42,125 bases of DNA from an uncultured Clostridia bacterium (GCA_946415665.1 CAMKTI010000002.1:1-42125), one strand, 5' to 3'. Positions 777-34,015 are shown, counted from the first letter of the stretch. The notes: generated by a model from the letters alone, not told the origin. Numbers and translations: made by a program.

Positions 777-836
777 ATTAATATTTTTATTATCATAAAG
801 ATTTTTATCGTTCTTGCCAATATTAACATTCTTTAA

Positions 837-1082: not shown

Positions 1083-1130
1083 AAGATTCCTTATTTTGTT
1101 TTACCTCACTTTGATTAAAATATTTGTCCT

Positions 1131-1304
1131 CTACAAATATTTCGGGAACTGTTTTGGTTTCGTTAAACTCCTATTATCTGGATTTGGATCATTTTGATGT
1201 CTTTCAATACATTTTTTCTTAGTGTCGAGCTCCCCTTCATAAGTTTTTAATTTAATGTCTTTCGTATCTCTGATAAAAAAATCCAAGTTATCTTTTTTTT
1301 TCAT
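1131..1304 (-). CDS. hypothetical small protein, 57 aa (below the ORF-track cutoff)
   Basis: Hand translation gives MKKKDNLDFFIRDTKDIKLKTYEGELDTKKKCIERHQNDPNPDNRSLTKPKQFPKYL. ATG at 1304 is preceded by AGGTGGTG. It is the first gene after the promoter at 1419-1447. Confidence 0.4.
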   Translation of the reverse strand: MKKKDNLDFFIRDTKDIKLKTYEGELDTKKKCIERHQNDPNPDNRSLTKPKQFPKYL

Positions 1305-1418
1305 AAATCACCACCTCATTAAAAAACACCAAACAGATAAAAATTAAATATTTTCAAATTACCTGTTTTCATAAGTAAAATTTTTATTCCCAAAAAATTT
1401 AAACACTGCAACACAAAC

Positions 1419-1447
1419 ATTCTAAAACAAAAAATATTATCAGTCAA
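1419..1447 (-). promoter_or_regulatory. sigma-A-type promoter for the small-ORF operon
   Basis: Minus strand reads TTGACT, a 17-nt spacer, then TAGAAT. It lies about 105 nt upstream of the ATG at 1304. Confidence 0.55.
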
Positions 1448-1825
1448 GCGTTTTATTTGAAATTTAGATAAAAAAATAACATGGCGTGATTATTTTTAAA
1501 ACAAATTTATAATCTAGACAATTAAAAAATATTTTCTTAAAACAAAAGTAAAATTAGAGAGTGTCGATAAAGACGAGAAAAAATTAAAGAAAGTAACGAA
1601 GCAATAAATGATGAACAAGAAGTAAAGTATTTAACCCGATACTATTTAATCCATCTTCTGCTATGAGTAAGCACTAAATTATCGCTTGTCAAGCTAGAAA
1701 AAAATCTCATAAGCTTGATTGTATTACTAAAAATCAAAACTCATTGTCGATGTTAAACCAAAACTTTTTTAAAGAAAATAATTTTAGAAAAAAGAAAATG
1801 GTAACAAAAAAATTAAAGAAAAACA

Positions 1826-1875
1826 AAAGACAGGTCAAAAACTGTAATTTAATTCACAGTTTTAATCTGTCTTTT
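1826..1875 (-). terminator. long interrupted hairpin with U-run downstream of the 259-aa membrane protein gene
   Basis: Outer arms are aaaagacag and ctgtctttt, inner arms aaaactgt and acagtttt. T/A runs flank both sides, and it begins 10 nt past the stop at 1885. Confidence 0.6.
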
Positions 1876-1884
1876 TTGATTTTA

Positions 1885-2664
1885 TTATTTTGTATTAATT
1901 TCTTCTCCTTTTTTATTCAATGTTTCTATTCTATTCTCTTTATCTCCGGCTTCTTTACTATTTTGTTTTTGCATTAGTGACTTATTTCTTGTGAGGTAAT
2001 CGCCTATTTTTCTAAACATTGGATAAAACATAGTGTTGTTATAGTTAATTGATTGCTTATTTTTGAAAATATTTTTACCGATAAGAATAGCAAAAATAAT
2101 TCTAAGTACAAGCGAAACCATAGTTGCCACTATCACCGGCACAGAAAATAGTGAAGCACTAGCAATTAAAGAATATACAATAAACCCACAAGCAGCTGTA
2201 TCAAAAATGCCGGCAATGATATTTGCAAAAAATTTCAGTTTAGGTTTTTGTTTTTGGATTGCAACCATAAAATAACCAATTCCAACCCAAGAAATAACGA
2301 AAATAAAACCTAAGACAACTTTGAAAATGTGCCAATTCGGAAAAGAAACCCAATGGTTGCTTTGTATATTGTTGTATCTATTAACTAAAATGCTATAACA
2401 ACTTCCACAATATTTTGATGTTTTTCTATTTTCATCGAGTGCATACATTGTCATTTCTTTATCGAGGTTATTAAACATTAATTTAATTACCTGTATAAAA
2501 TAATCATCATGTTTTTGCTTATCATTATGATCAATTTTTTTCAGTTCTTTTGGAATAAAATCAGCCTCGTATACACTTTGCCTCCAAAAACTGTCATCAT
2601 ATTCAAAAAAAACTTCAGCCCAATTTTGAAATTCATTTTCATCTGGGAGAAGCTTATTTTCCAT
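1885..2664 (-). CDS. orphan membrane protein, 259 aa (soluble N-domain of about 120 aa plus about 3 TM helices)
   Basis: Start moved to the ATG at 2664 (MENKLLPDENEF...), which has GGGAGG 7 nt upstream. The track start at 2805 reads through the promoter and tandem repeats. Hydrophobic segments include VVLGFIFVISWVGIGYFMV, IIAGIFDTAACGFIVYSLI and VPVIVATMVSLVLRIIFAILI. Confidence 0.7.
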   Translation of the reverse strand: MENKLLPDENEFQNWAEVFFEYDDSFWRQSVYEADFIPKELKKIDHNDKQKHDDYFIQVIKLMFNNLDKEMTMYALDENRKTSKYCGSCYSILVNRYNNIQSNHWVSFPNWHIFKVVLGFIFVISWVGIGYFMVAIQKQKPKLKFFANIIAGIFDTAACGFIVYSLIASASLFSVPVIVATMVSLVLRIIFAILIGKNIFKNKQSINYNNTMFYPMFRKIGDYLTRNKSLMQKQNSKEAGDKENRIETLNKKGEEINTK

Positions 2665-2722
2665 AAAATCTACCTCCCATAAAATAATTACAATAAAAAA
2701 TAATAATTTTAAACAAAAAAAT

Positions 2723-2767
2723 GACGTCATCCAACGCGACGTCATCCAACGCGACGTCATCCAACCC
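2723..2767. repeat. 3 x 15-bp tandem repeat GACGTCATCCAACGC (third unit ends ...AACCC), GC-rich, each unit with a GACGTC palindrome
   Basis: Read directly from the sequence. It lies between the -10 box at 2777-2782 and the start codon at 2664 of the minus-strand gene. Confidence 0.95.
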
Positions 2768-2776
2768 TCCCCAACA

Positions 2777-2805
2777 ATTCTAAAGCAAAATTTTTTATTT
2801 GTCAA
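2777..2805 (-). promoter_or_regulatory. sigma-A-type promoter, copy P1 of a conserved promoter cassette
   Basis: Minus strand reads CTTGACAAATAAAAAATTTTGCTTTAGAAT, which is TTGACA, 17 nt, TAGAAT. Confidence 0.65.
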
Positions 2806-2987
2806 GATCTTATCAAAATATTTTTATAAACTTTGTATACATTTTAATATGTATCTAGATTTTTTTGGTCGAATTAAAAATTGTCCGTGTAGTTGTTTGT
2901 ACTGTTTTTTATCGTTTTTGTCAATATTTTTTAGTAATGAGATAAAATTTAATGTGGGTAAAAATAATTGTTCGGAGGCAAATTTTT

Positions 2988-4025
2988 TTGAAAATAATTT
3001 TAACAGGCGGTGGAACTGCCGGACATGTCACTCCAAATTTTGCATTACTTGAAGATTTAAAAAAAAATAATTTTGAGATCGAATACATAGGAAGCAAAAA
3101 TGGCATGGAAAAAAAATTAGTCATGGAAAAAGGAATTATTTATCACGGGATTTCGTGTGGAAAATTGAGAAGATATTTGAGCATGAAAAACTTTAGCGAT
3201 CTTTTTAGAATTTGCAAAGGGATTTTTGAAGCCGATAAATTTATAAAAAAAATAAGGCCAAATATTATTTTTTCGAAAGGCGGTTTTGTTAGTGTTCCAG
3301 TGGTTATTGCCGGATGGAAAAATAAAATTCCAATCGTGATTCACGAATCCGATATGAGTCTTGGATTAGCAAATAAAATTTGTTTGCCGTTTGCAAAAAT
3401 TATGTGTAGCTCGTTTGAATTAAAAAATATAAAAAAAACTGTTTGGACGGGCGCACCAATTCGTAAAGAATTATTTTTGGGAGATAAAGAACGTGCGCGC
3501 AAAAAATTAAATTTTGATACAAGAAAAGTTTTGATGATTATAGGCGGTAGTCAGGGCAGTAAAAAAATAAATGATTTTATAAGAGCTATTTTAAATAAAT
3601 TAAGAGATTTTCAGATTATTCATGTGTGCGGAAAAAATAATTTAGCTGGAAATATAAAACAAGAAAATTATCGTCAGTTTGAATATCTTGATAAAGATTT
3701 GGCCGATTTTTTTGCGCTTGCAGATGTAATTATTTCTCGTGGCGGTTCAAATTCGATTTTTGAATTTTTGGCGCTGAAAAAATTAAATTTATTAATTCCG
3801 TTGTCAAAAAAATCAAGTCGCGGAGATCAGGTTTTAAACGCAAAGTTTTTTAAAGAAAATGGATTTAGTGAGATGATTTTAGAAGGAGATTTGTCAGAAG
3901 ATTTATTTTTAAACACGCTAAAGAGTCTTATTAGCAAAAAAAATTTTTATTTAAAAAATATGCTAGCGGCAAATTTTTCTAATGGTACAAAAAAAATAAT
4001 CGAGCAGATAAAAAAATATGTTTAA
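2988..4025 (+). CDS. murG: UDP-N-acetylglucosamine--N-acetylmuramyl-(pentapeptide) pyrophosphoryl-undecaprenol GlcNAc transferase
   Basis: N-terminal KIILTGGGTAGHVTP glycine loop and overall MurG-like sequence. Start set to the TTG at 2988, 9 nt after GGAGG. The track ATG at 2952 has no RBS. Confidence 0.9.
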   Translation: MKIILTGGGTAGHVTPNFALLEDLKKNNFEIEYIGSKNGMEKKLVMEKGIIYHGISCGKLRRYLSMKNFSDLFRICKGIFEADKFIKKIRPNIIFSKGGFVSVPVVIAGWKNKIPIVIHESDMSLGLANKICLPFAKIMCSSFELKNIKKTVWTGAPIRKELFLGDKERARKKLNFDTRKVLMIIGGSQGSKKINDFIRAILNKLRDFQIIHVCGKNNLAGNIKQENYRQFEYLDKDLADFFALADVIISRGGSNSIFEFLALKKLNLLIPLSKKSSRGDQVLNAKFFKENGFSEMILEGDLSEDLFLNTLKSLISKKNFYLKNMLAANFSNGTKKIIEQIKKYV

Positions 4026-5559: not shown

Positions 5560-7326
5560 ATGACTTTAAGAAGCGAGATTGATAAAAAATTTAAATGGCA
5601 TTTGGAAGATTTATTTGAAAATGATGATTTGTGGCAAAAAGATTTTGATGAAGTTAAACAAAAAGTTGATGCGATAGAAAAAAATTTTAAAGGTAAATTA
5701 AATGATTTGGACGTTTTAAAAAAATGTTTAGACGAATCGCGTGGTATTGGAGAAAAATTAGGACGTTTGTATGTTTATGCTTTTATGAGATTACACGAAG
5801 ACATGAATAATAATTTTTACAATGGAATGTCTCAAAAAGTTACGGAGCTTGAATCACAAGTTTCAGCAAAAATGTCTTTTATTGAGCCGGAAATTTTAAA
5901 TATTTCGGAAGAAGAGCTTAATAAGTTCGTCGCAAAAAATAATTTATATGAGTTTTATATAAAAAATATATTGCGCATGAAAAAACATATTTTAAGTCCT
6001 GAAGAAGAAAAAATTTTAGCGGATGCAAAAAATATAGCTGTCGGTCCAGATAATATTTTTGGAATGTTAAATAATGCGGATATAAATTTTGGAAAAATAA
6101 AATTGCCAGATGAAAATAAAGCAGTTGAGTTAACACACGGAAATTTTATTTCGTTTATGGAATCTAATAATCGTGAATTTAGAAAAAATGTGTTTGAAAA
6201 ATATTATGCTGAGTATTTAAGACAGAAAAATACGATTCAGGCAATTTATGCAGCGAGTGTAAAAAAAGATATGTTTTTTGCTAAAACGAGAAGATTTAAA
6301 TCATGTTTGGAAAGTAAATTATATGGAAATAATATTCCTGAGAGCGTTTATTTTAATTTAATAGAGACGGTGCATAAATATTTGCCAGTATTGCATGATT
6401 ATATGGGATTACGAAAAAAAGTTCTTGGTGTTTCAGAATTGTATATGTATGATATTTACGTGCCTTTGGTTCATGAAATGGATAAAAAAATTGAATTTGA
6501 TGAAGCAAAAGAAATTGTAAAGAAAGCTTTATTGCCGTTGGGAAAAGATTATGTAGAAAAGCTGGACGAGGGATTAAATAGCGGATGGATTGATGTTTAT
6601 GAAAACAAAGGCAAAAGATGTGGAGCATACCAATGGGGTTCTTATGGTTGTCATCCGTTTGTTTTATTAAATTATGATAATAAACTCGATGATGTGTTTA
6701 CGTTGGCACATGAAATGGGACACGCAATGCATAGCTTTTATTCTTGGGGAAAACAAGAAAATTTGTATGCGGATTATACGATTTTTTTAGCTGAGATAGC
6801 TTCGACAGCAAATGAAACGCTTTTGATTAAATATTTATTAAAAAATAATAGTGATAGTAAATTTAGAGCTTATTTGTTAAACTATTTTATAGAGCAGTTT
6901 AGACGGACTTTATATAGACAAACGATGTTTGCCGAATTTGAATTAAAGGCACATGAATTTGTAGAAAATGGTCAGCCGTTGACGCTTGAATTATTAAATA
7001 AAACTTATCATGATTTGAATTTAATGTATCACGGGAAAGATATCGTTTTTGATGAAAATTCTGATATTGAATGGATGAGGATTCCGCATTTTTATAAGCC
7101 GTTTTATGTTTATCAGTATGCAACAGGACATTCGGCAGCAATTGCTTTAGCAGAAAAAATATTAGCTGGCAAAAATAATTATCGCGAATTTTTGGAAAGT
7201 GGATCGAGTAAATATTCGATTGAGATATTAAAAAATGCTGGAGTTGATATGACAACACCTGAACCAATTGAAAATGCTTTGAAATATTTTAAAGAGCTCG
7301 TTGATGAATTTAAAAATTTGGTTTAA
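5560..7326 (+). CDS. pepF: oligoendopeptidase F (M3B metallopeptidase)
   Basis: HEMGH zinc motif within TLAHEMGHAMH. The 588-aa length and sequence are PepF-like throughout. Confidence 0.92.
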   Translation: MTLRSEIDKKFKWHLEDLFENDDLWQKDFDEVKQKVDAIEKNFKGKLNDLDVLKKCLDESRGIGEKLGRLYVYAFMRLHEDMNNNFYNGMSQKVTELESQVSAKMSFIEPEILNISEEELNKFVAKNNLYEFYIKNILRMKKHILSPEEEKILADAKNIAVGPDNIFGMLNNADINFGKIKLPDENKAVELTHGNFISFMESNNREFRKNVFEKYYAEYLRQKNTIQAIYAASVKKDMFFAKTRRFKSCLESKLYGNNIPESVYFNLIETVHKYLPVLHDYMGLRKKVLGVSELYMYDIYVPLVHEMDKKIEFDEAKEIVKKALLPLGKDYVEKLDEGLNSGWIDVYENKGKRCGAYQWGSYGCHPFVLLNYDNKLDDVFTLAHEMGHAMHSFYSWGKQENLYADYTIFLAEIASTANETLLIKYLLKNNSDSKFRAYLLNYFIEQFRRTLYRQTMFAEFELKAHEFVENGQPLTLELLNKTYHDLNLMYHGKDIVFDENSDIEWMRIPHFYKPFYVYQYATGHSAAIALAEKILAGKNNYREFLESGSSKYSIEILKNAGVDMTTPEPIENALKYFKELVDEFKNLV

Positions 7327-7339
7327 AAAAATTTAAACG

Positions 7340-7762
7340 GTGATGTTTATGAGTGAAAATTGTATTTTTTGTAAGATAATAGATAATAAAGTTGATTGCT
7401 ATAAAATTTATGATGATGATGATTTAATTGTGATTTTGGATAAGTTTCCAAATAATATTGGGCATTCGTTGATTATTCCTAAAAAGCATATAGAAAATAT
7501 TTTTGAACTTGATGATGGTTTGTGTGAAAAGATTTTTAAGATGGTAAAAAAAGTGGCTTGTGAGTTAAAAAAAAATTTAAAGGCTGATGGAATAAATATT
7601 TTACAAAATAATAATGAGGCGGCAAGTCAAACTGTGAATCATTTTCATATGCATGTGATTCCAAGATTTTTTGGTGACACGGTAGAAATAAAATGGGTTA
7701 ATAATAAATTCAGCGATGATGATTTTAATTTGGTTTTAGAAAAAATTAAACGCGGTTTTTAG
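7340..7762 (+). CDS. HIT-family (histidine triad) hydrolase
   Basis: Contains the HFHMHVIPR histidine triad and CIFCKII near the N-terminus. The exact start is ambiguous (GTG 7340, ATG 7343 or ATG 7349). Confidence 0.88.
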   Translation: MMFMSENCIFCKIIDNKVDCYKIYDDDDLIVILDKFPNNIGHSLIIPKKHIENIFELDDGLCEKIFKMVKKVACELKKNLKADGINILQNNNEAASQTVNHFHMHVIPRFFGDTVEIKWVNNKFSDDDFNLVLEKIKRGF

Positions 7763-7782
7763 TTTTGTTTTGGAGGATAAAA

Positions 7783-8193
7783 ATGTCTGTTGTAAAAGAA
7801 ATTATTAAGATTGAAAACGATAGTTTGTGCTTTGGAAATTATTTGCTAGAAGAAAAAAATAAGGTGGATAATTTTATTTTTGAAAATGATAAATATAAAG
7901 TTAAGACTTATAATAAAATTACTCGGTTGGAAAAAAATGATAAGTTGATAATGGAAACGATTCCGGGAAGTACGATTAGGAATTTTAATATGAGCGAAAA
8001 AAAAATTTATTTTAGTGCCGAAGGATTAGATGACACGCAAATAACTTTTGATTTGCAGGTAAACAAAAATTATGAAATAGAAATAGATAATATTTTGATC
8101 GGCACAGAAAAATCAAGTGCGTTTGGTAAGCTTTGTTTTAGCGTAAATTTGTCAGATACACCGAAAGATATTAAAATAAGGCTAGTTGATTAA
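7783..8193 (+). CDS. hypothetical protein, 136 aa
   Basis: Start moved to the ATG at 7783, 7 nt after GGAGG. It is co-directional with pepF and the HIT gene. No family was recognised. Confidence 0.6.
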   Translation: MSVVKEIIKIENDSLCFGNYLLEEKNKVDNFIFENDKYKVKTYNKITRLEKNDKLIMETIPGSTIRNFNMSEKKIYFSAEGLDDTQITFDLQVNKNYEIEIDNILIGTEKSSAFGKLCFSVNLSDTPKDIKIRLVD

Positions 8194-8201
8194 ATAAAAA
8201 G

Positions 8202-8238
8202 CTCCTGATAAACAAAAATTTACCGGGAGTTTTTTTTA
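8202..8238 (+). terminator. terminator after the pepF-HIT-hypothetical string
   Basis: Stem ctcctg / cgggag (one G-U pair) followed by a T8 run. Confidence 0.55.
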
Positions 8239-8267
8239 AATAATTTTTCGCGTTGAATCTAAATCTA

Positions 8268-9119
8268 GGCAACGTTTGCATAAAAAGCAAATCACAAATA
8301 AAAGCAAAGGATATGGTAAAAATAAAAATAAAATCAAGCTTATCATAACGAGTAAAAACTTTTTTAAAATATTTCAATCTGAGAAAATATCGCTAGGTAT
8401 TGTTGCGCTGTTTATAAAGTTTTTTATTATGGAGCTAAGGGATTTTACAATTTTTCTTTAGGTGGACAACTGTGAAGAAACAGTGATCCTTAGCTAAAAC
8501 TAAAGTTTTATCATTTTCGTAATCTCGGTCCATCAAGAGATAATTATTATTTTTGGAATATATGGATTCAATCAACCTTCTTCTTTCAGGATCATTGTGA
8601 AGGTTGCCGTGAGACAAGCAAAAAACCACTGGATAAGGAAATGTGCAATGTGGGCGTCACTTTGTCGTTAATCCACATTTTGAACATCCGATTTTTTGTT
8701 TCTGATTACTTTTATTCTTGTTTGCATATGGATTTACCTTTATGTTTGCACTATCAATAAAGAGTATATAATCTCCTTCATTAAACGCTTTTTGCTTTTT
8801 CATGGCTTTCAAAACAAGGTTTTAAAAAAAAGCAATAGCTTTTGGCAATCGTAACGTTCTTCGACTATCTACTAAATTTCATATAAACTGCATGTCACTT
8901 CCCATATTTTTTTGATAGCGACATACATTTGCAACCGTTCTCTATTATGTAAAACATTGTACACATGAATTTGTAGTTTGATACCTTTGCTGTTTTTTTG
9001 CTATCGATATTAATCCCTCTAGTTTTTTTATTGCGTTTTTGCCAATTTCGTATCTCTAACCTATCACTTTTTTCTTTTTACTCAATCCATTTTTATTTTT
9101 ATTTTATGTGAATGATACC
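8268..9119 (-). mobile_element. IS5-family element type A, copy 1, with decayed transposase
   Basis: Fragments read ...LLMDRDYENDKTLVLAKD... and ...KKVFTRYDKLDFIF... in different frames. The ends, ggcaacgtttgcataaaa and ttttatgtgaatgatacc, are related to the copy-2 IRs. Confidence 0.8.
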
Positions 9120-9472
9120 TAATTACTTTTGAGGTAAAACAACTGAGAATCGATTTAAACGCTTCTGGTTTTATTTTGTAATGTTGCTAAACAAACACAG
9201 AGGCAGAGGATAAATTTGGCGCTGCAGCAAATGCATTAATGATTTCATTTGTTAAATTATTGCTTTCTATACCTATAATTGTTTTAACTATCATACGGAA
9301 TAGCAGCTTCAATTCCAGACAATAAAAGTTTCTTAAGATATTTTGGATTCATATATGACTTTCTTGCAAATGGAATTTCTCTAATTACAAGGCTTGCTTT
9401 TGTTTCATTATAAGATTTCAAGGTGAAAGCGGGCACACATATGAAAGGCTCTGTCAGTCACTTATATCAACA

Positions 9473-9521
9473 AAAAGACCCCTATACCATTTCTGATATA
9501 GAAGTCTTTTTGTTGTCATCT
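9473..9521 (-). terminator. rho-independent terminator of the 1050-aa gene
   Basis: Minus-strand RNA forms a GACUUCUAUA / UAUAGGGGUC 10-bp stem (2 G-U pairs) followed by UUUUUGUUG, 14 nt past the stop. Confidence 0.7.
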
Positions 9522-9534: not shown

Positions 9535-12500
9535 TTAAATATCACTTTTTTCATCTTCAACTTCAGTAATTCCAGGCATTTGATTTGATTGATTTAATTC
9601 AGTACCTTTATTTTTAGATAGACCAAGAGTTTTCTTTTGATGTTTTTCATATCCACTATTTATATTTTTATTTGTATTTTTTGGTTCTTTACAGATTGTT
9701 TTATATTTAATTTTATATGCAATGACAACAAAACAAAAAAAAAGAATACATGATAACATCGCCAAAAACCAAAACGCTTTTATTATGCTAAAAATCAAAA
9801 CGGAAAAAGCAATAACAGTTAACGCGTATAAAACAATTTTTGCTATTAATTTAAGATATGAAATTTTTGTGGTTGATGTAAAAGTAGTTTTAGAATCTTG
9901 ATCTTGTAAATTTTTTTGTGCTGAATCAATCGGGATGAATGTATTATTTATTTTTAGTACATTGTTGTTTCTGTTATCATTTAAGCCGATTTTTGTTGTT
10001 GAATTTGCGTTTAACTCGCCTTTATTATTTGTTGGTACATATTCGATGTTTATTTTATTTTTTTCTTTGTTTTTGATTTTTTCATCTTTGGTTCCTGTGT
10101 TTTTGCTCGATTTATTTTGTTGTAACTCGGGTATATTTATATTTTTCTCAGTTAATACTTTTTCCAGTTTGCCAAAGTTGCCACAGAACTCAAAATGTTC
10201 AGACCAAGAAAAATTTTTTTGTTTAAAATATAATTTTTTCGCATAAGCTAAAATCTTGTTTACAAACTTTTCATGAGTCATATCTATATCATCTTCATCA
10301 TCCGCCTCATTATCCGCCTCATTTGGATCATTTTCGTTTTTATTTTTAAGATCAGCATTACTTACAAAAATAATCAACAATCCCAAAAAACAACCCACAT
10401 CCTCCGAGATATCTTTCTTGTTTTTATTTGCAAAACCATATTTCAAAAATTCTTTTATTTGATCAAAATTCCATTTGGAACCATCTTTTATTTTTTGACA
10501 ACATTTTAAAAGAGTTGTTAGTTTCAATTTATCTTTTGTACCTTTTTTTTGCCCAGATTTTTCATCTTTTTTCGCTAGAAAGCGTGTTAAAACTTTGAGC
10601 ATATCACTTATATCAACAGCGCCATCAACAATTAGATTTATGACAGAGTTCATAAAAGAGTCACAATTTGAAATATCAATGGGATTATCTACAACTTTAT
10701 TAATATTTTCCAAAAAAATCTTTATATCATCTGATGATTTAATTATACCAGGCGCAATATTTTTGATAAAAAGCTCTATAGATTTTGACTCGCGTACTCT
10801 CAACGCCTGTTTTAAATCTTTTTCATAACCGGCTTTGATCACTTTCTGTATACGTGTCGGATCAACTTGTTTACTTTTCAAAAATTCATCTATAAGAGTG
10901 TCACATGCTTTTGAAAGCTCATTTAAATCTTGATATTTTGTTGCTTTTTGCTGAACAAAAGATTCAAACTTTTCCTGAAGAGCAGAAAAATCAGCCTCAA
11001 GCTTATTGTTACCGGAATCGTTAAATCTTACCCATCTATGTTTGAGCGCATTCTTTAAGTCAGAGCTTTTAATTGTTCCTTTTAAAAATTCAACCTCAGG
11101 TATATTTTCAGCGACCCAATCAAAAACATTCTGTTCAAATTTTATATACTCAGTTTCGTTTTCATCGACACGGCTCAAAAAATACACCAACAAATCGCAA
11201 AATGCCTCAACATCATCTTTCTTATATTTTTTTTCTTTTTTACCATCTTTAGATTTTTTTGATTTAGTAAAACGATTTTTAGCAACCAATAAAAATTTAG
11301 TTATGTCGTCAAATCTATATTTTTGTCCAGTACCAATTTTATACCTTAGAAAACAACTAATATCACTGATAGATAAACTGTTATTTTTATCTAACTTCAA
11401 AAATTTATTCATATCACTCATATTCAACCTATAATCGATAATCAATAGACGAAATTTATTAGAAGTAATATCGATATCCTTGGTTTTTGACTTTATGAAT
11501 TCAATAAGTCCATTAAAATCATCAGATGACTTAATTATATTATTATTTATTTTTTCTAAAATTTTATCAAACGAATCCCGATTAAGTACCAGTTCTTTTT
11601 TTATATCTTCTGTAATATCTATACCATATTTTTTTATTTCATTACTAAAATTTAAAACAAATGTATCATATAGTTTATTCAATTCATGAATGCCAGCACA
11701 ACTATAACTATTTACGAGAGCCAGATCATTATATAACTTGTTTAAAATAATTTTATTAAACCACACAAAATAGTCAATTGCAACTTTGATATCGCTATCA
11801 TCAGAGTTTTTCTGGAAAACAAATTTTATACAATGTTCATTAAGATACTTTGAGAGTTTAACTCCGCTTTTGTGTTTATCGATTTCGCTTAATAAATGTT
11901 TGAATTTTGGCGTACTTTTGTTTATAGAAGCAAAAATTTTTTGAGCTATGCTAAATTCTTTAGCTATATCATCTGATGCGATATTATAATAGGAATGAAA
12001 AAGCACCCACCACATTAAATTAAACAAAGCCTCTACTTGTTTATTGTGATCTTTTTTTTTACTTTTTGCATCGGGTAATATAAAATTTTCCGCGCAAGAT
12101 AATAATTTTTCAAAACAACTATAATCTAATTCAAATTTGTGTGCACAATTTGAAAGCGTGGATAGAGATAATTTTTTTCCTTTGTTCAAATCAAGGACCC
12201 AAAATAAATTATCTTTTGTTAACGTTGATTTCTCACCAACTTTAAGCAAATCAATAATATAAGACATAAAATAGTCATCATAAAAATCATCTTTAAACTT
12301 TAGATCGTTTTTTGTGAAATTAATTAGCTTTTCTAATTTTTCTGATGAATCGATTGTTTCCTCTTCAAAAGCCTCTAAAAAATACAACGGGAAGTTATCA
12401 TCCGTTAATTCCCAACTATCTTCATATTTCTTAAACTGATCATCATAAAATTTTTTAACTTCATTTTCGTCCACCTTTTTGTCGCTTGTCTTGGATTGGA

Positions 12501-12687
12501 TAACTTTTTCACATTTTTTATTCAACATCTTTTTCCAAATTTTTTTTACCTTAGCCAATTCATTTTTAATATTGTATTCATCATCCCAAGTTATTTGGCC
12601 TTCTTTTGATTGGTAGTAATCACATACTTTATTATTAAATTCATTATTTAATTCATTTATATCAAGCTGGATTTTTTCATTTTCCAT
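9535..12687 (-). CDS. orphan 1050-aa helical-repeat protein with C-terminal TM hairpin anchor
   Basis: Start moved to the ATG at 12687 (MENEKIQ...), 9 nt after AGGGGTG. The N-terminus is hydrophilic with no signal peptide. There are three internal repeats, and two TM helices at track aa 948-997 (nt 9709-9858). Confidence 0.85.
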   Translation of the reverse strand: MENEKIQLDINELNNEFNNKVCDYYQSKEGQITWDDEYNIKNELAKVKKIWKKMLNKKCEKVIQSKTSDKKVDENEVKKFYDDQFKKYEDSWELTDDNFPLYFLEAFEEETIDSSEKLEKLINFTKNDLKFKDDFYDDYFMSYIIDLLKVGEKSTLTKDNLFWVLDLNKGKKLSLSTLSNCAHKFELDYSCFEKLLSCAENFILPDAKSKKKDHNKQVEALFNLMWWVLFHSYYNIASDDIAKEFSIAQKIFASINKSTPKFKHLLSEIDKHKSGVKLSKYLNEHCIKFVFQKNSDDSDIKVAIDYFVWFNKIILNKLYNDLALVNSYSCAGIHELNKLYDTFVLNFSNEIKKYGIDITEDIKKELVLNRDSFDKILEKINNNIIKSSDDFNGLIEFIKSKTKDIDITSNKFRLLIIDYRLNMSDMNKFLKLDKNNSLSISDISCFLRYKIGTGQKYRFDDITKFLLVAKNRFTKSKKSKDGKKEKKYKKDDVEAFCDLLVYFLSRVDENETEYIKFEQNVFDWVAENIPEVEFLKGTIKSSDLKNALKHRWVRFNDSGNNKLEADFSALQEKFESFVQQKATKYQDLNELSKACDTLIDEFLKSKQVDPTRIQKVIKAGYEKDLKQALRVRESKSIELFIKNIAPGIIKSSDDIKIFLENINKVVDNPIDISNCDSFMNSVINLIVDGAVDISDMLKVLTRFLAKKDEKSGQKKGTKDKLKLTTLLKCCQKIKDGSKWNFDQIKEFLKYGFANKNKKDISEDVGCFLGLLIIFVSNADLKNKNENDPNEADNEADDEDDIDMTHEKFVNKILAYAKKLYFKQKNFSWSEHFEFCGNFGKLEKVLTEKNINIPELQQNKSSKNTGTKDEKIKNKEKNKINIEYVPTNNKGELNANSTTKIGLNDNRNNNVLKINNTFIPIDSAQKNLQDQDSKTTFTSTTKISYLKLIAKIVLYALTVIAFSVLIFSIIKAFWFLAMLSCILFFCFVVIAYKIKYKTICKEPKNTNKNINSGYEKHQKKTLGLSKNKGTELNQSNQMPGITEVEDEKSDI

Positions 12688-12772
12688 AAGCAAATACACC
12701 CCTAATCAAAATTTTTTCATGGCATCAAATAAAAACTAAAAATCGATTTTACATAACAAACAGTCGTTATTT

Positions 12773-12801
12773 ATATTAACACAAAACTTTTTATTTGTCA
12801 A
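12773..12801 (-). promoter_or_regulatory. sigma-A-type promoter, copy P2 of the conserved cassette
   Basis: Minus strand reads CTTGACAAATAAAAAGTTTTGTGTTAATAT, which is TTGACA, 17 nt, TAATAT. It lies about 85 nt upstream of the ATG at 12687. Confidence 0.65.
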
Positions 12802-12865
12802 GAGTTAATTCAAAAATTTTTGTAATAATCCCTATAGCAGAAATTATTTAGCTTTGTTTTTTTTA

Positions 12866-13617
12866 TATAGTGTCGATAAATTCAAAATCGAGAAGAAATA
12901 GAGATGGAAATAGCATGAACAAAAAAGGAAACACGGAAGGCAACAAAAGTTTTGAAATAGCGGATAGCAATGCCATGCCAACGCTTAAATTTAAAAAATA
13001 TATTTTAGACAATATGCCGCAAACAATATAAGTCAGGAGCAAAATTTTGTTTAGATTTCCAATTGCACTTTGGCGTAATAACTGTCTTAATGCCAAGTTT
13101 TTCAGCGTAATTAATAATTGGATTTATATCGTAAGCCAGATCACCAAACGAAATACTAAGCTTAATTTTCTGTATTAAATCTAGTGCAACACTGCAATCA
13201 GCCGTTGTTCCAGCGGTCGTTTTAGATTGATCATTCTTCCCTTTATTGCCACAATATTTTTTAACTCTATGCTTTGATTTAAGATTTTAGCCAATTTCTC
13301 CATTTTCCGTTTTTACCCATCTCAAAAATCTTTTATGTCCCGTATATCATTTCCCGTAGTCCGGCAGTAAATCTCTCCATAGTTATCCTGTCTTAAGATC
13401 CAAAATATTCCGTTTAAAAAATTTATATCATCTTTCTCCTCTCTTCCTTTCCTTTCTTTTCTTTCATATAATCTTTTGTTTTTTACCGCCTTTCATCTCT
13501 CATATCATTCCTTTGATATCTTTTTTTCCTGTTTTCTTACACATCTTTCCAGCTTCTTAGTTTCATTTCTTTTTTATTTCCTTATGCTTATATATCGTTT
13601 GATTTTATCTGCACTGT
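12866..13617 (-). mobile_element. IS5-family element type B (divergent copy D), decayed; boundaries approximate
   Basis: Hand translation gives ...NGIFWILRQDNYGEIY... and ...FKFKRWHGIAIRYFKTFVAF..., broken by stops and frameshifts. The left end tatagtgtcgata resembles the type-B ends. Confidence 0.6.
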
Positions 13618-13832
13618 TTAAAAGCAAAAAAGACATTCTCCACGATATATTGAAAGAAAACAAGGTTAAAAAAAATGCTTATGAGAACAAAAACAAAATT
13701 TAATTTATCAAACTAAACATATGCATATTTAATCTACAAAAATGAGACCAAAAGAGATTGTTGGCTTTATTTTTTTTACGGTAAAATAATTTTTGACGAT
13801 ATTAATTATTCTAAAACGATTTGAATTATCTC

Positions 13833-13861
13833 TTGATAAATAAAAAATTTTGTTTTAAAAT
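13833..13861 (+). promoter_or_regulatory. sigma-A-type promoter, copy P3 of the conserved cassette
   Basis: Plus strand reads CTTGATAAATAAAAAATTTTGTTTTAAAAT, which is TTGATA, 17 nt, TAAAAT. It lies about 80 nt upstream of the ATG at 13941. Confidence 0.6.
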
Positions 13862-13940
13862 TACCACTGGATAATGATGATTGCTTTTGGCAAATAATAA
13901 ATTTACTTTTAAAATAAACAAGGAGTATGTGAAATAAAAC

Positions 13941-15803
13941 ATGAACGAGAATAATTTAGAGTGTAATTTGGATTCTTTGAAGGATATTATTTTAGATGTG
14001 CTGCTTGCAATAATGATTGGAGATTGGACTGGATCCAATATAGAAAATTTTACGGATGGAAATGAACATTTATTAAAATGGGATTTGTACCATGTACAAA
14101 TGTTACCGCCGGCCGGAATAAAAAAACAACAAGACTATAATTTAAACTTAGCTCAAAATTGTATAGAAGATGATGGAGCAAGAGCGGCAAAAAATTATAT
14201 ATTGAAGGCACCAAATCGATTGACTGACGATACAATGTTTTCAATGGCACTTGCGCTTACATTAATTTTAAATAGAGAAAAATATAAGTTAGATCAGGAA
14301 TTTGACGAAAGGACTTATAAAAAAAATTTAGAAGAACTTATGGCTGATTATACTGAAATGCTAATGAAGTTTTATCGTTATTATAATTCAATAAGTGTTT
14401 GTGGACCAATGATGCATAAATTACTTAGTACAAAATTAGCTAACGTTCCGAAAAATAAATTAATAGAAACTATAAAAAAAATCAAACAACAAAACAAATT
14501 AAGCGGCGAACATTTTTGTGAGAGTTATGCAAACGGTTCGGCAATGCATAGTGCTCCCGGTGCATACGTTGCGCGAACTATGGAAGAATTAGATTTTATA
14601 ATTGAACAGACGGTTAAAAATACACATGATAATCCTGATGCGATAAAAGGCGCAAAAGTTGTTGCACAGTTTATTTTTTTGGCAAGGCTCGGATGGGACA
14701 AAGAAACGATAGCCAAATGGATAAGTTATAAATTTAAAGTTAAAGGCGAACACCCTTGCGCAAGTTATGATACAAGTTTAACACTTGAAGATATTAAAAA
14801 ATCATATTTTAGGACATTAGAATGCAAATACACAGTTCATCCGGCATTGATTGCCGTGCTTAAGGCAAATAGTTTTGAAGAAGCGGTAAATAATGCGAGA
14901 TCGATTGGAGGAGATTCTGATACTATTTGTGCAATTGCAGCACAAATGGCTGTGGCTCTTTGGCCAATTCCTAATAAATATAAAGATACGATAAAAAAAT
15001 ATTCGCTTGATGTCAAAACAGAGGGTACTCTCAAATTAGATCTTAAAAACCCAACAGCGCAAGAATTTTTATCTTGTAATCGCAATGGGAAAAATAATTT
15101 ATTTATAAAAATTAATGATGAATTTAATAAGAAATTTGTTGCACGTTATAAAAATAATGATTTGATAATTTGGCAGTTAAAAAATACGTTGTCGATTGTT
15201 AAAAATTTAGAAACCGATTTACAAAATATTGTGATTGAAGAAAAAAAGAATGATTTAATTGCTTTGCTTGATGGAATAGAAAAAGATTTGCAAAATAAGT
15301 TTGCTAAAGTAGGAAACAATATTTCAAAAGAAATAGCTGAGTTTGTGGAAAAAATAAAATCGAAAACAACAGAAATAAAAAATAAAGCAAAAACATTAAA
15401 TATCCAAGTAAACAATGATAATTGTATGGCAGATAATTATGTAACACCAGAAGGTTTTATCGAGGAAAAACCAAAAGTTATTTTTGTGCCGTATATTACA
15501 ATCCTAAAAAATGTTTTTGTACACGAACTCAACTTAGTAGTTATTTTTATTTGTGTGCTCGCGGTAATTATATGCGCAATAAAGGCATTATGGCTATTTT
15601 CCGGAATTTCAGCTGGTATATTTTTATTAATCATCATGATTGATTTTGTGGCAAGCATAATCAAATTTAAGTGTGTTAATAAAGAATATTATTTATCGCA
15701 AAATAACACTGATCAGAACTCTAAAACTTTAGAATTACCACCAAAAAATACAGTCGGAGAACAACATTTAAAAATAGATTTAGATTATAAAGAAAAAGAT
15801 TAA
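13941..15803 (+). CDS. ADP-ribosylglycohydrolase (ARH/DraG family) domain fused to a coiled-coil spacer and C-terminal TM hairpin, 620 aa
   Basis: ARH signature motifs are AIMIGDWTG (aa 23-31), LTDDTMF (aa 94-100), GSAMHSAPG, THDNPDAIKGA and GGDSDTICAIAAQMA (aa 323-337). TM helices fall at aa 528-575 (nt 15522-15665). Confidence 0.85.
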   Translation: MNENNLECNLDSLKDIILDVLLAIMIGDWTGSNIENFTDGNEHLLKWDLYHVQMLPPAGIKKQQDYNLNLAQNCIEDDGARAAKNYILKAPNRLTDDTMFSMALALTLILNREKYKLDQEFDERTYKKNLEELMADYTEMLMKFYRYYNSISVCGPMMHKLLSTKLANVPKNKLIETIKKIKQQNKLSGEHFCESYANGSAMHSAPGAYVARTMEELDFIIEQTVKNTHDNPDAIKGAKVVAQFIFLARLGWDKETIAKWISYKFKVKGEHPCASYDTSLTLEDIKKSYFRTLECKYTVHPALIAVLKANSFEEAVNNARSIGGDSDTICAIAAQMAVALWPIPNKYKDTIKKYSLDVKTEGTLKLDLKNPTAQEFLSCNRNGKNNLFIKINDEFNKKFVARYKNNDLIIWQLKNTLSIVKNLETDLQNIVIEEKKNDLIALLDGIEKDLQNKFAKVGNNISKEIAEFVEKIKSKTTEIKNKAKTLNIQVNNDNCMADNYVTPEGFIEEKPKVIFVPYITILKNVFVHELNLVVIFICVLAVIICAIKALWLFSGISAGIFLLIIMIDFVASIIKFKCVNKEYYLSQNNTDQNSKTLELPPKNTVGEQHLKIDLDYKEKD

Positions 15804-15820
15804 TACATATCTTTTTTGAC

Positions 15821-15849
15821 ACAAAAAAATCGGATGTCTCCACCCGATT
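15821..15849 (-). terminator. terminator after rplQ, between convergent genes
   Basis: Minus-strand stem AAUCGG / CCGAUU with a 10-nt loop, followed by a U7 run. Confidence 0.55.
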
Positions 15850-15875
15850 GCAAAACTATTAAAAACAAGATAAAA

Positions 15876-16403
15876 TTATACCAACTCAATTATTGCCATT
15901 TCAGCTCCATCGCCATTTCTTTTTCCAATCTTAATTATTCGTGTATATCCGCCGTTTCTCTGTGTATATCTTGGAGCAATCTCATCAAACATTTTTTTTG
16001 GCAAATCAACAAATTTTCGAGATCTCTTTTTTTTGTTTCCCTTGGGAAATTCTGATATACGACAAGTATTCGCTAGTATTTTTCTACGTGCATTCAATCT
16101 TCCCGGATTATCCTTTTTTATACTTTTATCAACAACATCAAAAACATTAACTGTTTTTCCATTTTCATCTTTTTCTTTAACGCGATTTCCATTTTCGTCT
16201 TTTCGCGCTTTTTTAGTCTGTATATTAACCTCTTTGTAATCATCAGAATTTTTCTTTGCGACAGTAATTAATTTTTCAGCTTTTCTTCTTATTTCTTTTG
16301 CTCGATGCAACGTCGTTTTTATCTTGCCATAATAAATCAAACACGTAACACCCGATTTTAAAAAAGCTTTTCTCGTATCAGACTTAAAACCTATTTTTTT
16401 CAA
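15876..16403 (-). CDS. rplQ: 50S ribosomal protein L17 (long form with Lys-rich insertion)
   Basis: Contains ...[21 protein letters not shown]... and ...[35 protein letters not shown]. It is the last gene of the alpha operon. Confidence 0.93.
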
Positions 16404-16409: not shown

Positions 16410-17453
16410 TCACTCTCCCACATATTCATTATTTTCACCATTATCATTATTGCCATTATCTTCATCATCTTCATTTTTCAATTTCAAGCCAAGCGAATCC
16501 AACTTACACATAATTTCATCATATGATTTTTTACCCAAATTTCGCATCTTAAGCATTTCGTCATTTGTTTTAGCTAATAAATCACCAACCGAACCTATAC
16601 CAGAACGTCTTAAACAGTTATAAGCTCTTACGGACAAATCTAAATCTTCTATCGACATTTCAGAAAAATTCTCATCACTTGAATATACGACATCTTCGAA
16701 TATATTGCTTGTATTTTCTTCGATGCTTTTAAATTCAGAAATATCAATAAAACTTTCTAATTGCGTTCTAATTATTTTGGCAGCATAAGCAAGTGCCTCC
16801 GTTGCTTTCATTGCCCCATTCGTCCAAATTTGAAAAACCAACTTATCATAATCCGTAACATTCCCAACACGCACATCTTCAATATAAAAATTCACGCGTT
16901 CTACCGGCGTATAAATGGAATCAATCGCAATCACGCCAATTTCATTATTTATTTTTTTATTCTCTTCCGCTGAAACATATCCTTGCCCTCTTGTCAAAGT
17001 CATTTCCATTCGCAAACTACTATCATTCGAACTCAACGTTGCTATATGCAAATCTTTATTAACTATTTCAAACTCCGAACTTAATTTAATATCACCGCCG
17101 GTAACTTCTGTTTGTCCAGAAATTTCTATAAATGCCTTGTTACTTTCAAAACCATCCAGATAATTATTATCTAGATTACCCATGTTATCTTTTATAGCCA
17201 ATTTCTTTAAATTTAAAATAATATACATAGTGTCTTCTTTTACATCTGGTAAATTACTAAACTCATGTAAAACACCATCAATTTTAACATTACTTACTGC
17301 TATTCCAGGTATCGACGACAACATAACTCTTCGTAAAGTATTCCCTAAAGTCGCTCCGTAACCACGTTCCAACGGTTTGACACTGCATGAAGCATATTTC
17401 CCGTCATCACTCATCTCAATAATTTCTATGTGAGGTTTATTAATTGCTAGCAC
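16410..17453 (-). CDS. rpoA: DNA-directed RNA polymerase subunit alpha
   Basis: PLERGYGATLGNTLRRVMLSSIPG motif. Start set to the GTG at 17453, 8 nt after AAGGAGG. The C-terminal tail is acidic and Asn-rich. Confidence 0.95.
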   Translation of the reverse strand: MLAINKPHIEIIEMSDDGKYASCSVKPLERGYGATLGNTLRRVMLSSIPGIAVSNVKIDGVLHEFSNLPDVKEDTMYIILNLKKLAIKDNMGNLDNNYLDGFESNKAFIEISGQTEVTGGDIKLSSEFEIVNKDLHIATLSSNDSSLRMEMTLTRGQGYVSAEENKKINNEIGVIAIDSIYTPVERVNFYIEDVRVGNVTDYDKLVFQIWTNGAMKATEALAYAAKIIRTQLESFIDISEFKSIEENTSNIFEDVVYSSDENFSEMSIEDLDLSVRAYNCLRRSGIGSVGDLLAKTNDEMLKMRNLGKKSYDEIMCKLDSLGLKLKNEDDEDNGNNDNGENNEYVGE

Positions 17454-17503
17454 AAACAAAACCTCCTTATACTTTTTAATATCTTCACCAGAAATTATCT
17501 AAA

Positions 17504-31423: not shown

Positions 31424-31452
31424 ATAACAAATAAAAAGTTTTGTTTTTAGAT
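31424..31452 (+). promoter_or_regulatory. copy P4 of the conserved promoter cassette (degenerate -35)
   Basis: Plus strand reads AATAACAAATAAAAAGTTTTGTTTTTAGAT. A perfect TATAAT also lies at 31466-31471. Confidence 0.4.
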
Positions 31453-34009: not shown

Positions 34010-34015
34010 ACAAAG

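Follow-up and report, generated by a model that had tools for sequence, protein, structure and literature searches.

A divergent BIG-ARH gene pair in an uncultured Clostridia bacterium: probable IS-driven juxtaposition with promoter replacement

The two large genes described here, one encoding a 1050-aa protein (BIG) and the other an ADP-ribosylglycohydrolase (ARH), stand back to back in the window, i.e. the whole 42,125-nucleotide stretch of DNA that was analysed. We consider, with a probability of roughly 0.7, that this pair is a strain-specific juxtaposition driven by IS activity and accompanied by promoter replacement, and not a conserved system. Both the adjacency and the copied promoter would have arisen because IS activity rearranged this one genome, and a conserved ADP-ribosylation system is therefore not indicated. 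This DNA belongs to an uncultured, spore-forming Firmicute of low GC content (~30%), with many IS5-family elements in its genome; its lineage is known from rumen/gut metagenome contigs only, and both the BIG family and the ARH family are restricted to one narrow set of such contigs.

Locus structure, neighbourhoods and promoters

The features of the locus are as follows.

8240-9122 (about), minus strand: second IS5-type remnant, flanking the 3' side of BIG
9468-9515, minus strand: inverted repeat just 3' of the BIG stop codon, terminator candidate
9535-12687, minus strand: BIG gene, 1050 aa from its ATG (from the listed GTG, the ORF reaches 12699)
9715-9855, minus strand: BIG C-terminal anchor, aa 945-991, from a hydropathy scan
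12688-12772, minus strand: BIG 5' leader, conserved in the alignment to the BIG upstream regions of contigs L001, L004 and L010
12773-12850, minus strand: native BIG promoter region, the original copy, with TTGACA-17-TAATAT, the palindromic core ACAAATAAAAAGTTTTGT and ~50 nt further upstream
12885-13620 (about), minus strand: decayed IS5-family element, a transposase remnant with stops in all frames of a six-frame translation
13784-13861, plus strand: BIG promoter region copied in inverted orientation (~78 nt), with TTGATA-17-TAAAAT, upstream of ARH
13887-13915, plus strand: second promoter-like site, TTGGCA-17-TAAAAT, from a consensus scan only, past the copied promoter and before the first codon of ARH
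13941-15803, plus strand: ARH gene, ORF of 620 aa
15528-15671, plus strand: ARH C-terminal anchor, aa 530-577, from a hydropathy scan (helix 530-587 in the AF2 model)

The preliminary description of this DNA had reported two large divergent genes separated by a dead IS5-type element, and both observations held: the two ORFs are present and divergently oriented, and the decayed element between them shows 41-43% identity to annotated IS5-family transposases in tblastn (best E 1e-19) and a weak match to Pfam DDE_Tnp_1 (E 2e-4). It is a remnant with no intact ORF, and terminal repeats were not identified. The remnant on the other side of BIG has 69% amino acid identity to a DDE_Tnp_1 gene of contig L006, and belongs to a repeat family with DNA matches in L006, L007 and L011 and further copies in the window (35553-35988, 37106-37224 and 42008-42119). 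The inverted repeat after BIG has 22-nt arms with 86% complementarity; since no T-run was scored after it, its terminator role is putative.

Gene neighbourhoods in related contigs did not bear out the proposal of a two-gene module, because BIG and ARH are adjacent in no related contig recovered. BIG homologues are found in the order pgsA -> BIG <- pdp (L001, L002, L003, L004 and L010), and ARH homologues in the order PPDK <- -> ARH (L005-L009, L011 and L012); the partner gene was beside BIG in none of the former five loci with flanks and beside ARH in none of the latter seven. The window itself contains none of pgsA, pdp and PPDK. L012 carries rplQ, the last part of the ribosomal/rpoA operon, downstream of ARH as the window does, and its positions 829-3276 correspond to window 13937-16380 at 88% identity, with PPDK upstream in L012. 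Homology of the window ARH to its relatives ends 4 nt before the start codon, the rplQ side being retained, and the upstream homology of BIG to its relatives ends at about 12866-12885. BIG, together with its promoter and leader, is now located upstream of ARH and bracketed by the two IS5 remnants. Direct evidence of IS activity in this clade comes from the nearest ARH relative (93% identical in nucleotide sequence), whose reading frame is broken near codon 423 by an IS of this type.

Each gene had been said to follow the same cassette of about 30 nt, and both copies are real, but the cassettes (12773-12801, minus strand, and 13833-13861, plus strand) are the core of a longer inverted duplication of ~78 nt. 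Segment 13784-13861 on the plus strand is ~80% identical to 12773-12850 on the minus strand, with a local score of 74 against 25 +/- 3.5 for shuffles (maximum 41), and it also matches L001 9841-9916, upstream of BIG in that contig. The promoter region is conserved 5' of BIG in L001, L004, L010 and L013, none of which has an IS there, and in ARH relatives another spacer stands where the window ARH has the copied promoter. The ~75 nt from the copied promoter to the ARH start (13862-13936) include the second promoter-like site. An IS-mediated rearrangement would thus have cut ARH off from its native promoter, and a leftover or copied BIG promoter would now drive it. With a BIG-type promoter driving ARH, both genes are probably transcribed alike in this strain; their co-expression in this genome is plausible, as judged from near-identical sigma-70-type promoters. 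BIG and ARH may also occur together in one genome across the clade, and if they always did, the two could still be functionally linked in trans.

The cassette turned out not to be a mark of the pair, since copies also precede two other orphan genes:

1885-2664: 259-aa membrane orphan, downstream of the third cassette copy
2777-2805, minus strand: third cassette copy, TTGACAAATAAAAAATTTTGCTTTAGAAT, upstream of the 259-aa orphan
31427-31444, plus strand: fourth copy (18-nt palindromic core), at a distance of 93 nt from the ATG of the 418-aa orphan
31538-32794: 418-aa coiled-coil orphan, downstream of the fourth copy

The two-copy cassette consensus with up to three mismatches gave 3 sites in the window and 0 in 100 shuffles, and the 18-nt core with up to two mismatches gave five matches against 0.3 expected. 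The core precedes the ATG by 87-93 nt in three cases (BIG, ARH, the 418-aa orphan) and by 120 nt in the fourth (the 259-aa orphan). Because the core ACAAA-N8-TTTGT overlaps the promoter (-35 box and spacer) and precedes these two other orphan genes as well, it is likely an operator/promoter type shared by a group of genes peculiar to this lineage; in ~113 kb of related loci, it was found before BIG only.

The two proteins and their C-terminal anchors

BIG gave no match in Pfam, NCBIfam and PDB sequence searches, and among 1.84 billion representative proteins it has just 18 relatives, fragments included, all 18 of which are members of the BIG family or fragments of them. The protein evolves rapidly (dN/dS 0.55-0.74), with a mosaic pattern of divergence. 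It consists, in order, of an N-terminal domain, a weak repeat, a linker rich in N and K, and a hydrophobic hairpin at the C-terminus. The designation "repeat protein" is correct to the extent that one internal repeat exists (aa 360-508 versus 623-779, 31.5% identity, E 7e-7), but this repeat is weak and is the single one detectable. In one homologue (P0005) the N-terminal domain is duplicated, and the overlapping ends of the BIG-bearing contig L013 suggest tandem BIG copies there. The AlphaFold2 model is all helix with a mean pLDDT of 56 and no strands of at least 3 residues; the hydrophilic N-terminal domain (aa 10-280) is confidently modelled, and confidence is low past residue ~280, with pLDDT below 60 across most of residues 280-860, so a small cryptic domain in that part is possible. 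Foldseek with this model returned generic alpha-solenoids only (E > 3e-3, TM < 0.2). The suggestion that BIG is a cryptic writer, i.e. an ADP-ribosyltransferase of the R-S-E or H-Y-E type, was rejected on these grounds, with no split beta-sheet and no profile or fold match. The earlier statement that no ADP-ribosyltransferase is recognisable agrees with our scan of orphan ORFs, in which no ART domain was found. We infer that BIG would be a fast-evolving, duplication-prone helical scaffold, anchored to the membrane as ARH is and having no catalytic signature.

ARH scored E 2.9e-19 against Pfam PF03747 (70.3 bits; cut-off 26.2) and 1.2e-22 against phrog_6572, and homologues are present in phages. 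The catalytic core of its AF2 model has pLDDT values mostly of 70-95, and Foldseek matched it (probability 1.0; target-normalised TM scores of 0.52-0.65) to MJ1187, ARH3, a TTHA-type ARH, Lmo0067 and DraG, at 13-17% sequence identity to the solved structures. The ARH domain covers about aa 14-351, has a ~60-aa insertion after the first motif, and is followed by a helical stalk of ~130 aa (about aa 370-485). The metal motifs GDWTG..E35, T95-D-D-T98 and G323-G-D-S-D-T328 are intact, and E35, T95-D96-D97-T98 and D325-S-D327-T328 are kept in close homologues; they are degenerate in a distant anchored homologue (P0014). The acidic and Thr ligands of the two metal ions were assigned from published DraG and ARH3 structures (review PMC8120803). 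The dN/dS of 0.24-0.40 indicates purifying selection. With a bona fide ARH fold, intact motifs and this selection, ARH looks like a working enzyme on sequence and model grounds; it would act as a metal-dependent, DraG/ARH3-like hydrolase that its stalk and a tight two-helix hairpin keep on the cytoplasmic side of the membrane, stripping ADP-ribose from some membrane-proximal substrate.

The hydropathy scan agreed with the preliminary description that both proteins have hydrophilic N-termini lacking a signal peptide, and hydrophobic segments at the C-terminus only; BIG and ARH are accordingly predicted to be membrane-attached by a C-terminal pair of hydrophobic helices, and this topology is a prediction. 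In BIG, the two helices are parted by an IIKAFW turn and followed by YKIKYK, motifs conserved in P0002-P0006; in ARH, the hairpin has an IKALW turn and IIKFK and is conserved in P0007, P0009, P0010 and P0012, the IxKxW turn recurring in P0014. Both anchors are stretches of ~45 hydrophobic residues with a one-residue (Lys) break, Lys-rich flanks on both sides and a long hydrophilic tail. A common C-terminal module had been proposed, and part of it stands: the two tails score 77 in a Smith-Waterman alignment, where segment-preserving shuffles give 37.6 +/- 7.7 (p <= 0.0005), and the IKxxW turn and IK(Y/F)K are conserved within each family at equivalent positions in both. The "KTLxL ... KN..GxE" elements, on the other hand, are unconserved among homologues of BIG or ARH. 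Nor does the likeness appear to be a special tie between the two. Two other tails in the window score 58 and 54 with BIG, below the 77 of ARH, but in hhalign the BIG and ARH tail profiles give P 3.8e-4 (probability 36%), and the BIG profile matches unrelated tail-anchored proteins of the clade equally well, with P 3.4e-4 for g474 and 6.8e-4 for a 605-aa protein of L009. The library-wide BIG profile search (1.84 billion representatives) retrieved no ARH protein via the anchor. Other tail-anchored proteins, in which a low-complexity linker joins a hydrophilic N-domain to two hydrophobic helices at the C-terminus, are encoded at window 40118-41542, L005 1495-3111 and L009 161-1978, and L014 encodes a further one, an 877-aa Metallophos protein paired with an anchored ARH-like protein; one anchored orphan adjoins spoIIAA-spoIIAB-sigF. 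The anchor thus appears to be an architecture recurrent in the clade, not a private link between BIG and ARH.

Alternative readings of the pair

A dedicated, co-regulated membrane ADP-ribosylation pair, with BIG as scaffold, target or cryptic writer for the ARH eraser, would be in keeping with the promoter duplicated before both genes, the similar tail anchors with IKxxW and IK(Y/F)K, and the limitation of both families to the same small clade. We regard this reading as improbable: adjacency recurs in no related contig recovered, only in this genome do the promoters match, BIG is modelled as all-helical without ART-like strands or matches, and the BIG tail profile matches the ARH tail no better than it matches unrelated tails. 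In addition, the closest ARH relative is IS-disrupted, the catalytic motifs of P0014 are degenerate, and no ART domain was found among the orphan ORFs scanned. Little weight is likewise given to ARH being a Tri1/Lmo0067-type immunity or anti-phage reversal enzyme that acts at the membrane against ADP-ribosylating effectors, with BIG an unrelated variable protein. Lmo0067 is indeed among the best sequence and structure matches of ARH, phages carry ARH homologues, and the mosaic divergence and high dN/dS of BIG resemble those of conflict-related genes; however, neither the window nor its relatives show an ART effector, secretion gene or defence gene next to ARH, PADLOC gave no match, ARH stays far under the cut-offs of the NCBIfam equivalogs for Tri1 and DraG, and its conserved neighbours, PPDK and rplQ, are housekeeping genes.

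A broader regulon, peculiar to the lineage, of proteins tail-anchored at the cytoplasmic face, with a common ACAAA-N8-TTTGT operator and common anchoring, perhaps concerned with the envelope or sporulation, is a tentative possibility that deserves more attention; the adjacency would then be accidental and the co-regulation meaningful. The core motif before BIG, ARH and the 418-aa and 259-aa orphans speaks for it, as do the several other proteins of the same anchored architecture, the L014 pairing of ARH-like and Metallophos proteins, and the anchored orphan beside spoIIAA-spoIIAB-sigF. What lowers its probability is that the motif stands only before BIG in the ~113 kb of related loci, was gained secondarily by ARH, and coincides in part with what is, for an AT-rich genome, an ordinary sigma-70-like promoter; no regulator was identified, and the anchors are not demonstrably homologous. 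A more far-reaching and rather unlikely reading is that the ARH hydrolase, the calcineurin-like phosphoesterase and the BIG family form an undescribed clade set of membrane-tethered "erasers" and helical scaffolds, with C-terminal hairpins of one kind and, in this genome, a common palindromic operator, as a layer of membrane-proximal ADP-ribosylation/dephosphorylation signalling or defence. IS-driven juxtaposition with promoter replacement is the reading that we prefer.

Comparison with known systems

Bacterial tail-anchored or C-terminal hairpin proteins resemble BIG and ARH in the hydrophilic N-domain, the lack of a signal peptide, the C-terminal-only helices and the Lys-rich flanks, but the stretch of ~45 residues with a one-Lys break and the long hydrophilic tail set BIG and ARH apart, and no described family was matched by their anchors. 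Rearrangements caused by IS elements commonly change how nearby genes are expressed, and IS-associated promoter capture is similar to the situation in the window, where two IS5 remnants bracket the relocated BIG and the ARH upstream region has been lost and replaced; the difference is that the new ARH promoter is an inverted copy of the promoter of a neighbouring gene, not an outward IS promoter or a hybrid -35 box.

ART-ARH pairs such as Tre1/Tri1 of Serratia and Lmo0067 of Listeria (PDB 8za7), the ARH of an effector-immunity pair, likewise have an ARH-fold enzyme, and the window ARH could, judging from its sequence and model, reverse arginine ADP-ribosylation. It differs in having no adjacent ART effector and in a partner, BIG, that is all-helical and came by rearrangement. 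A Tre1/Tri1-type pair was rejected (NF041672 32.1 bits, cut-off 490; no ART in the neighbouring ORFs scanned and no PADLOC match), as was a DraT/DraG nitrogenase switch (TIGR02662 29.5 bits, cut-off 337; no DraT, nif or GlnB-type context), the ARH neighbours being PPDK and rplQ in relatives and IS and BIG here, with neither draT nor nif among them. The closest known counterparts are the DraG/ARH3-type hydrolases (MJ1187, human ARH3 and R. rubrum DraG), which share with ARH the family, the all-helical fold and the motifs GDxxG...E, T-D-D-T and G-G-D-x-D-T. These characterised members are soluble, and the window ARH adds to their plan the ~60-aa insertion, the ~130-aa stalk and the two-helix hydrophobic anchor, its novelty being an ARH enzyme with a tail-anchored architecture.

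The divergent genes and their surroundings

Both long divergent genes of the preliminary description are present, BIG (a 1050-aa orphan gene) on the minus strand and ARH (a 620-aa ADP-ribosylhydrolase gene) on the plus strand, in a window with a G+C content of about 30%.

Genes and IS5-type remnants in the window (coordinates, strand where assigned, description)
~8240–9122: IS5-type remnant on the other side of BIG
9535–12687 (−): BIG, 1050 aa from the ATG also used by homologues (the mechanical GTG ORF extends to 12699)
~12885–13620 (−): decayed IS5-family transposase remnant between BIG and ARH
13941–15803 (+): ARH, 620-aa ORF
15876–16403 (−): rplQ, end of the ribosomal-protein/rpoA operon
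16410–17459 (−): rpoA, same operon
34253–34594, 35333–35988 and 37106–37224: IS5-type remnants in an ORF-poor stretch
38257–39791: spoIIAA-spoIIAB-sigF

BIG is a real gene, because a frame open over 1050 codons at 28% G+C is conserved in several genomes. The dead IS5-type element reported between the two genes is confirmed, because its six-frame translation contains many stops and tblastn finds annotated transposases of the IS5 family at 41–43% identity (best E 1e-19); its match to Pfam DDE_Tnp_1 is weak. Further copies of the 8240–9122 remnant lie at 35.3–36.0 kb, 37.1 kb and 42.0 kb. Intact ORFs are scarce in 32800–37300 and 42008–42119, where several IS5-type remnants are found; the genome appears to be rich in IS elements and in part decayed. 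Four tRNA genes (33839–34173, −) lie within the former stretch; an Rfam search of the window for known RNA elements in the leaders gave only these four tRNAs, located elsewhere.

Two other observations concern single genes. Ribosomal protein L17 (15876–16403, −) has 175 aa and the 97-position Pfam model is spread over residues 15–175, implying a long lysine-rich insertion. The stretch 276–659 (−) encodes a sequence 39% identical to residues 9–140 of an 877-aa phosphoesterase protein of the related metagenomic contig L014, and since the ORFs around it are short (45–470, 501–776, 837–1082), a paralogue that is fragmented or has diverged may lie here.

Promoter copies and a palindromic core

The two genes had been said to share a promoter of about 30 nt. 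Both 29-nt sites exist, with a sigma-70-type layout (TTGACA-17-TAATAT on the BIG side, TTGATA-17-TAAAAT on the ARH side), but the similarity is longer and a third copy lies elsewhere. The inverted similarity covers about 78 nt at about 80% identity, 12773–12850 (−) versus 13784–13861 (+), and ends at the −10 hexamer; its local score is 74, versus 25 ± 3.5 (maximum 41) for dinucleotide shuffles. The consensus of the two cassettes finds three sites in the window at ≤3 mismatches, versus none in 100 shuffles.

Additional cassette and core sites
2777–2805 (−): third cassette copy, upstream of a 259-aa membrane orphan (1885–2664)
2785–2802, 12781–12798, 13836–13853, 31427–31444: core ACAAATAAAAARTTTTGT (ACAAA-N8-TTTGT), the last preceding a 418-aa coiled-coil orphan, whose ATG is 93 nt away

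The core ACAAATAAAAARTTTTGT, a palindrome of 18 nt, has five matches at ≤2 mismatches versus 0.3 expected, and its distance to the ATG is near-constant, 87–93 nt, at three orphan genes and 120 nt at the fourth. Because the copy at 2777–2805 and the core at 31427–31444 precede other orphans, the cassette is not confined to BIG and ARH. The core, which overlaps the −35 box and the spacer, is a candidate operator.

We also considered whether the 78-nt inverted repeats are IS terminal repeats with outward promoters; this was rejected because the same region precedes BIG in four relatives without an IS, where the BIG upstream region follows pgsA by only 88–170 nt.

The leader of the 259-aa gene contains a perfect 15-nt tandem repeat of 2.9 copies, GACGTCATCCAACGC (2723–2765, −), which is G+C-rich within an AT-rich leader and includes the palindrome TGACGTCA. 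Its position, downstream of a cassette-type promoter and ahead of the start codon, suggests a possible regulatory element.

Synteny in relatives and the origin of the juxtaposition

Full-length BIG homologues number only five in 5.8 billion clusters, and ARH homologues about ten. Their contigs are metagenomic, several coming from rumen or ruminant-gut studies according to record names, and a source name is given for one homologue alone, of BIG, which NCBI lists as 'MAG: Firmicutes bacterium'. Scans of GTDB species genomes and JGI metagenomes found neither family, so the taxonomic placement is based on this name together with the sporulation genes seen in the window and the related loci. On the related contigs L001, L002, L003, L004 and L010, BIG stands in the order pgsA (CDP-OH_P_transf) → BIG ← pdp, and on L005–L009, L011 and L012 ARH is divergent from PPDK. 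No related locus carries both BIG and ARH, so the pair is not conserved as neighbours, and pgsA, pdp and PPDK are absent from the window, with no remnant of them beside either gene.

The contig L012, where ARH has PPDK upstream and rplQ downstream, aligns over 829–3276 with window 13937–16380 at 88%; this alignment and the flanks are decisive in showing that ARH is in its ancestral place beside rplQ and that everything upstream has been exchanged. Homology to L012 ends 4 nt before the ARH start codon. The homology of BIG to its relatives runs from the gene through leader and promoter up to about 12866–12885, where the IS remnant starts. Cassette and upstream flank are kept before BIG in L001, L004, L010 and L013, with no IS nearby. 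The promoter that ARH relatives carry at the corresponding position differs in its spacer, and the ARH-side copy in the window directly matches L001 9841–9916, upstream of BIG.

We therefore assign a probability of about 0.7 to an accidental, IS-driven juxtaposition of BIG and ARH with promoter replacement, as opposed to an evolved two-gene system. On the simplest reading, an IS-bracketed BIG cassette would have moved next to ARH with loss of the native ARH upstream region, and ARH is now preceded by the promoter region of BIG in inverted copy; a second, divergent BIG copy, later deleted, is one possible path. Genome flux of this kind is supported by several relatives. The 3.7-kb contig L013, carrying only BIG plus promoter, has identical 55-nt ends (1–55, 3683–3737), and the 3' end of BIG joins straight onto the region upstream of its promoter, as would be expected if BIG were present in tandem copies, if the molecule were circular, or from an assembly artefact. 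The BIG homologue P0005 has a second copy of the N-terminal ~400 aa. In the closest ARH relative (93% nt identity), an IS of the type seen in the 8240–9122 remnant interrupts the gene near codon 423 (L005 10001–11350; L006 3308–4657 and 4570–5183; four samples), and the insertion takes away stalk and anchor.

The dedicated, co-regulated two-gene module of the preliminary description does not hold, as the synteny of the relatives and the copied promoter stand against it, and without any supporting context we consider it very improbable. Since one promoter is a copy of the other, BIG and ARH may plausibly be co-expressed in this strain. A weaker view, compatible with juxtaposition but in our estimate rather unlikely, is that lineage-specific genes bearing the palindromic core are regulated together as a set. 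An immunity or defence role of ARH likewise lacks any supporting context and has little probability; a prophage or defence island was rejected, PADLOC giving no match and phage matches being only to generic ARH genes at 28–34% identity. Under accidental juxtaposition, the locus shows how a "divergent operon with shared promoter" can be mimicked when IS elements are active in a decaying gut or rumen genome rich in them, and synteny in relatives should be checked before function is inferred for apparent orphan-gene modules.

The two proteins, their tails and known ADP-ribosylhydrolases

BIG had been called a repeat protein and a possible cryptic ADP-ribosyltransferase (ART). Only one internal repeat is detectable (aa 360–508 versus 623–779, E 7e-7), and the ART, or any other enzyme, was rejected after negative searches with Pfam, NCBIfam, PADLOC, PHROGs, PDB profiles, AF2 and Foldseek. 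The AF2 model is all helical, without strands of ≥3 residues (pLDDT 80–90 for residues 10–280, low for the remainder), and Foldseek gives only generic alpha-solenoid proteins (E > 3e-3, TM < 0.2). An exhaustive HMMER search with the family profile over 1.84 billion representatives retrieved 18 proteins, all BIG-family members or fragments, and no ARH protein via the anchor. The dN/dS of BIG is 0.55–0.74, and its divergence is mosaic, in that segments of 86–91% nt identity adjoin segments without detectable nucleotide match. Nothing in BIG is suggestive of an ART; it is a narrowly distributed orphan.

The assignment of the second gene to the ADP-ribosylglycohydrolase family is borne out by the Pfam match (PF03747, 70 bits, E 2.9e-19) and by the fold. 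In the AF2 model (pTM 0.70) the catalytic core is well formed, and Foldseek finds MJ1187, ARH3, Thermus ARH, Lmo0067 and DraG (probability 1.0, target-normalised TM 0.52–0.65). All two-metal-ion residues of DraG/ARH3 are present (GDWTG...E35, T95-D-D-T98, G323-G-D-S-D-T328); they are kept in close homologues and lost in the 35%-identical anchored homologue P0014. The dN/dS against three relatives is 0.24–0.40 (catalytic domain 0.22). After the domain come helices (371–485), then a segment of poor model quality, and then a hydrophobic stretch (530–577), interrupted only by K549 (IKALW) and followed by IIKFK. As there is no signal peptide and the stretch is flanked on either side by Lys-rich sequence, its topology is most likely that of a hairpin whose two ends are cytoplasmic. 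Two ~800-aa matches from other metagenomes (P0015, P0016) unusually combine an ARH domain with the M subunit of a type I restriction-modification system (PF02384, PF12161), an architecture that has no relation to the locus described here.

The alignable C-terminal module ascribed to both proteins stood in part. The tails score 77, versus 37.6 ± 7.7 for shuffles keeping the hydrophobic/hydrophilic layout (p ≤ 0.0005) and 58 and 54 for two other window tails, and each family keeps its motifs (...IIKAFWFL...AYKIKYK in BIG; ...AIK(A/M)xW...IIKFK in ARH). However, the profile–profile comparison is weak (P 3.8e-4, probability 36%, 40 columns), and the BIG tail profile reaches P 3.4e-4 with the unrelated anchored orphan 40118–41542 and P 6.8e-4 with a 605-aa protein of L009; the distal KTLxL and KN..GxE are conserved within neither family. 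The two proteins thus have their architecture and two short motifs in common, which does not establish that the anchors descend from one ancestor. Recent gene conversion between the C-termini was rejected, because protein identity there is only about 25–30% and neither family conserves these distal elements. Other proteins of the clade show this architecture too: a hydrophilic domain is followed by a linker rich in N/K/E, a pair of hydrophobic helices and a tail that is again hydrophilic.

Examples of the recurrent tail anchor
Window 40118–41542 (−)
L005 1495–3111
L009 161–1978
L014, 877-aa calcineurin-like phosphoesterase

The first, a 474-aa orphan without family match, lies directly upstream of spoIIAA-spoIIAB-sigF; its N-terminal domain is hydrophilic, and at the C-terminus two hydrophobic helices are followed by an acidic tail, resembling BIG and ARH overall. 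On L014, the distant anchored ARH homologue P0017 (868 aa) and the 877-aa phosphoesterase (PF00149, E 3.6e-5; low-complexity linker and two hydrophobic helices at the C-terminus) form a divergent pair (6528–9161, −; 10001–12607, +), and could be membrane-tethered enzymes reversing protein modifications.

BIG is a new, very narrowly distributed and fast-evolving ~1000-aa protein, modelled as a helical membrane protein, and the stalked, tail-anchored ARH-family hydrolase is conserved, under purifying selection, in a small clade; neither alone opens a long-standing question. Scores of ARH against the NCBIfam equivalogs for DraG and Tri1 fall far under the cut-offs, so that, judged by these profiles, it is an ARH-family member and an orthologue of neither. 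Our literature searches turned up no membrane-anchored ARH; the ARH domain itself is known, and a protein in which it is joined to a stalk and a tail anchor is, as far as these searches and one review show, a new architecture.
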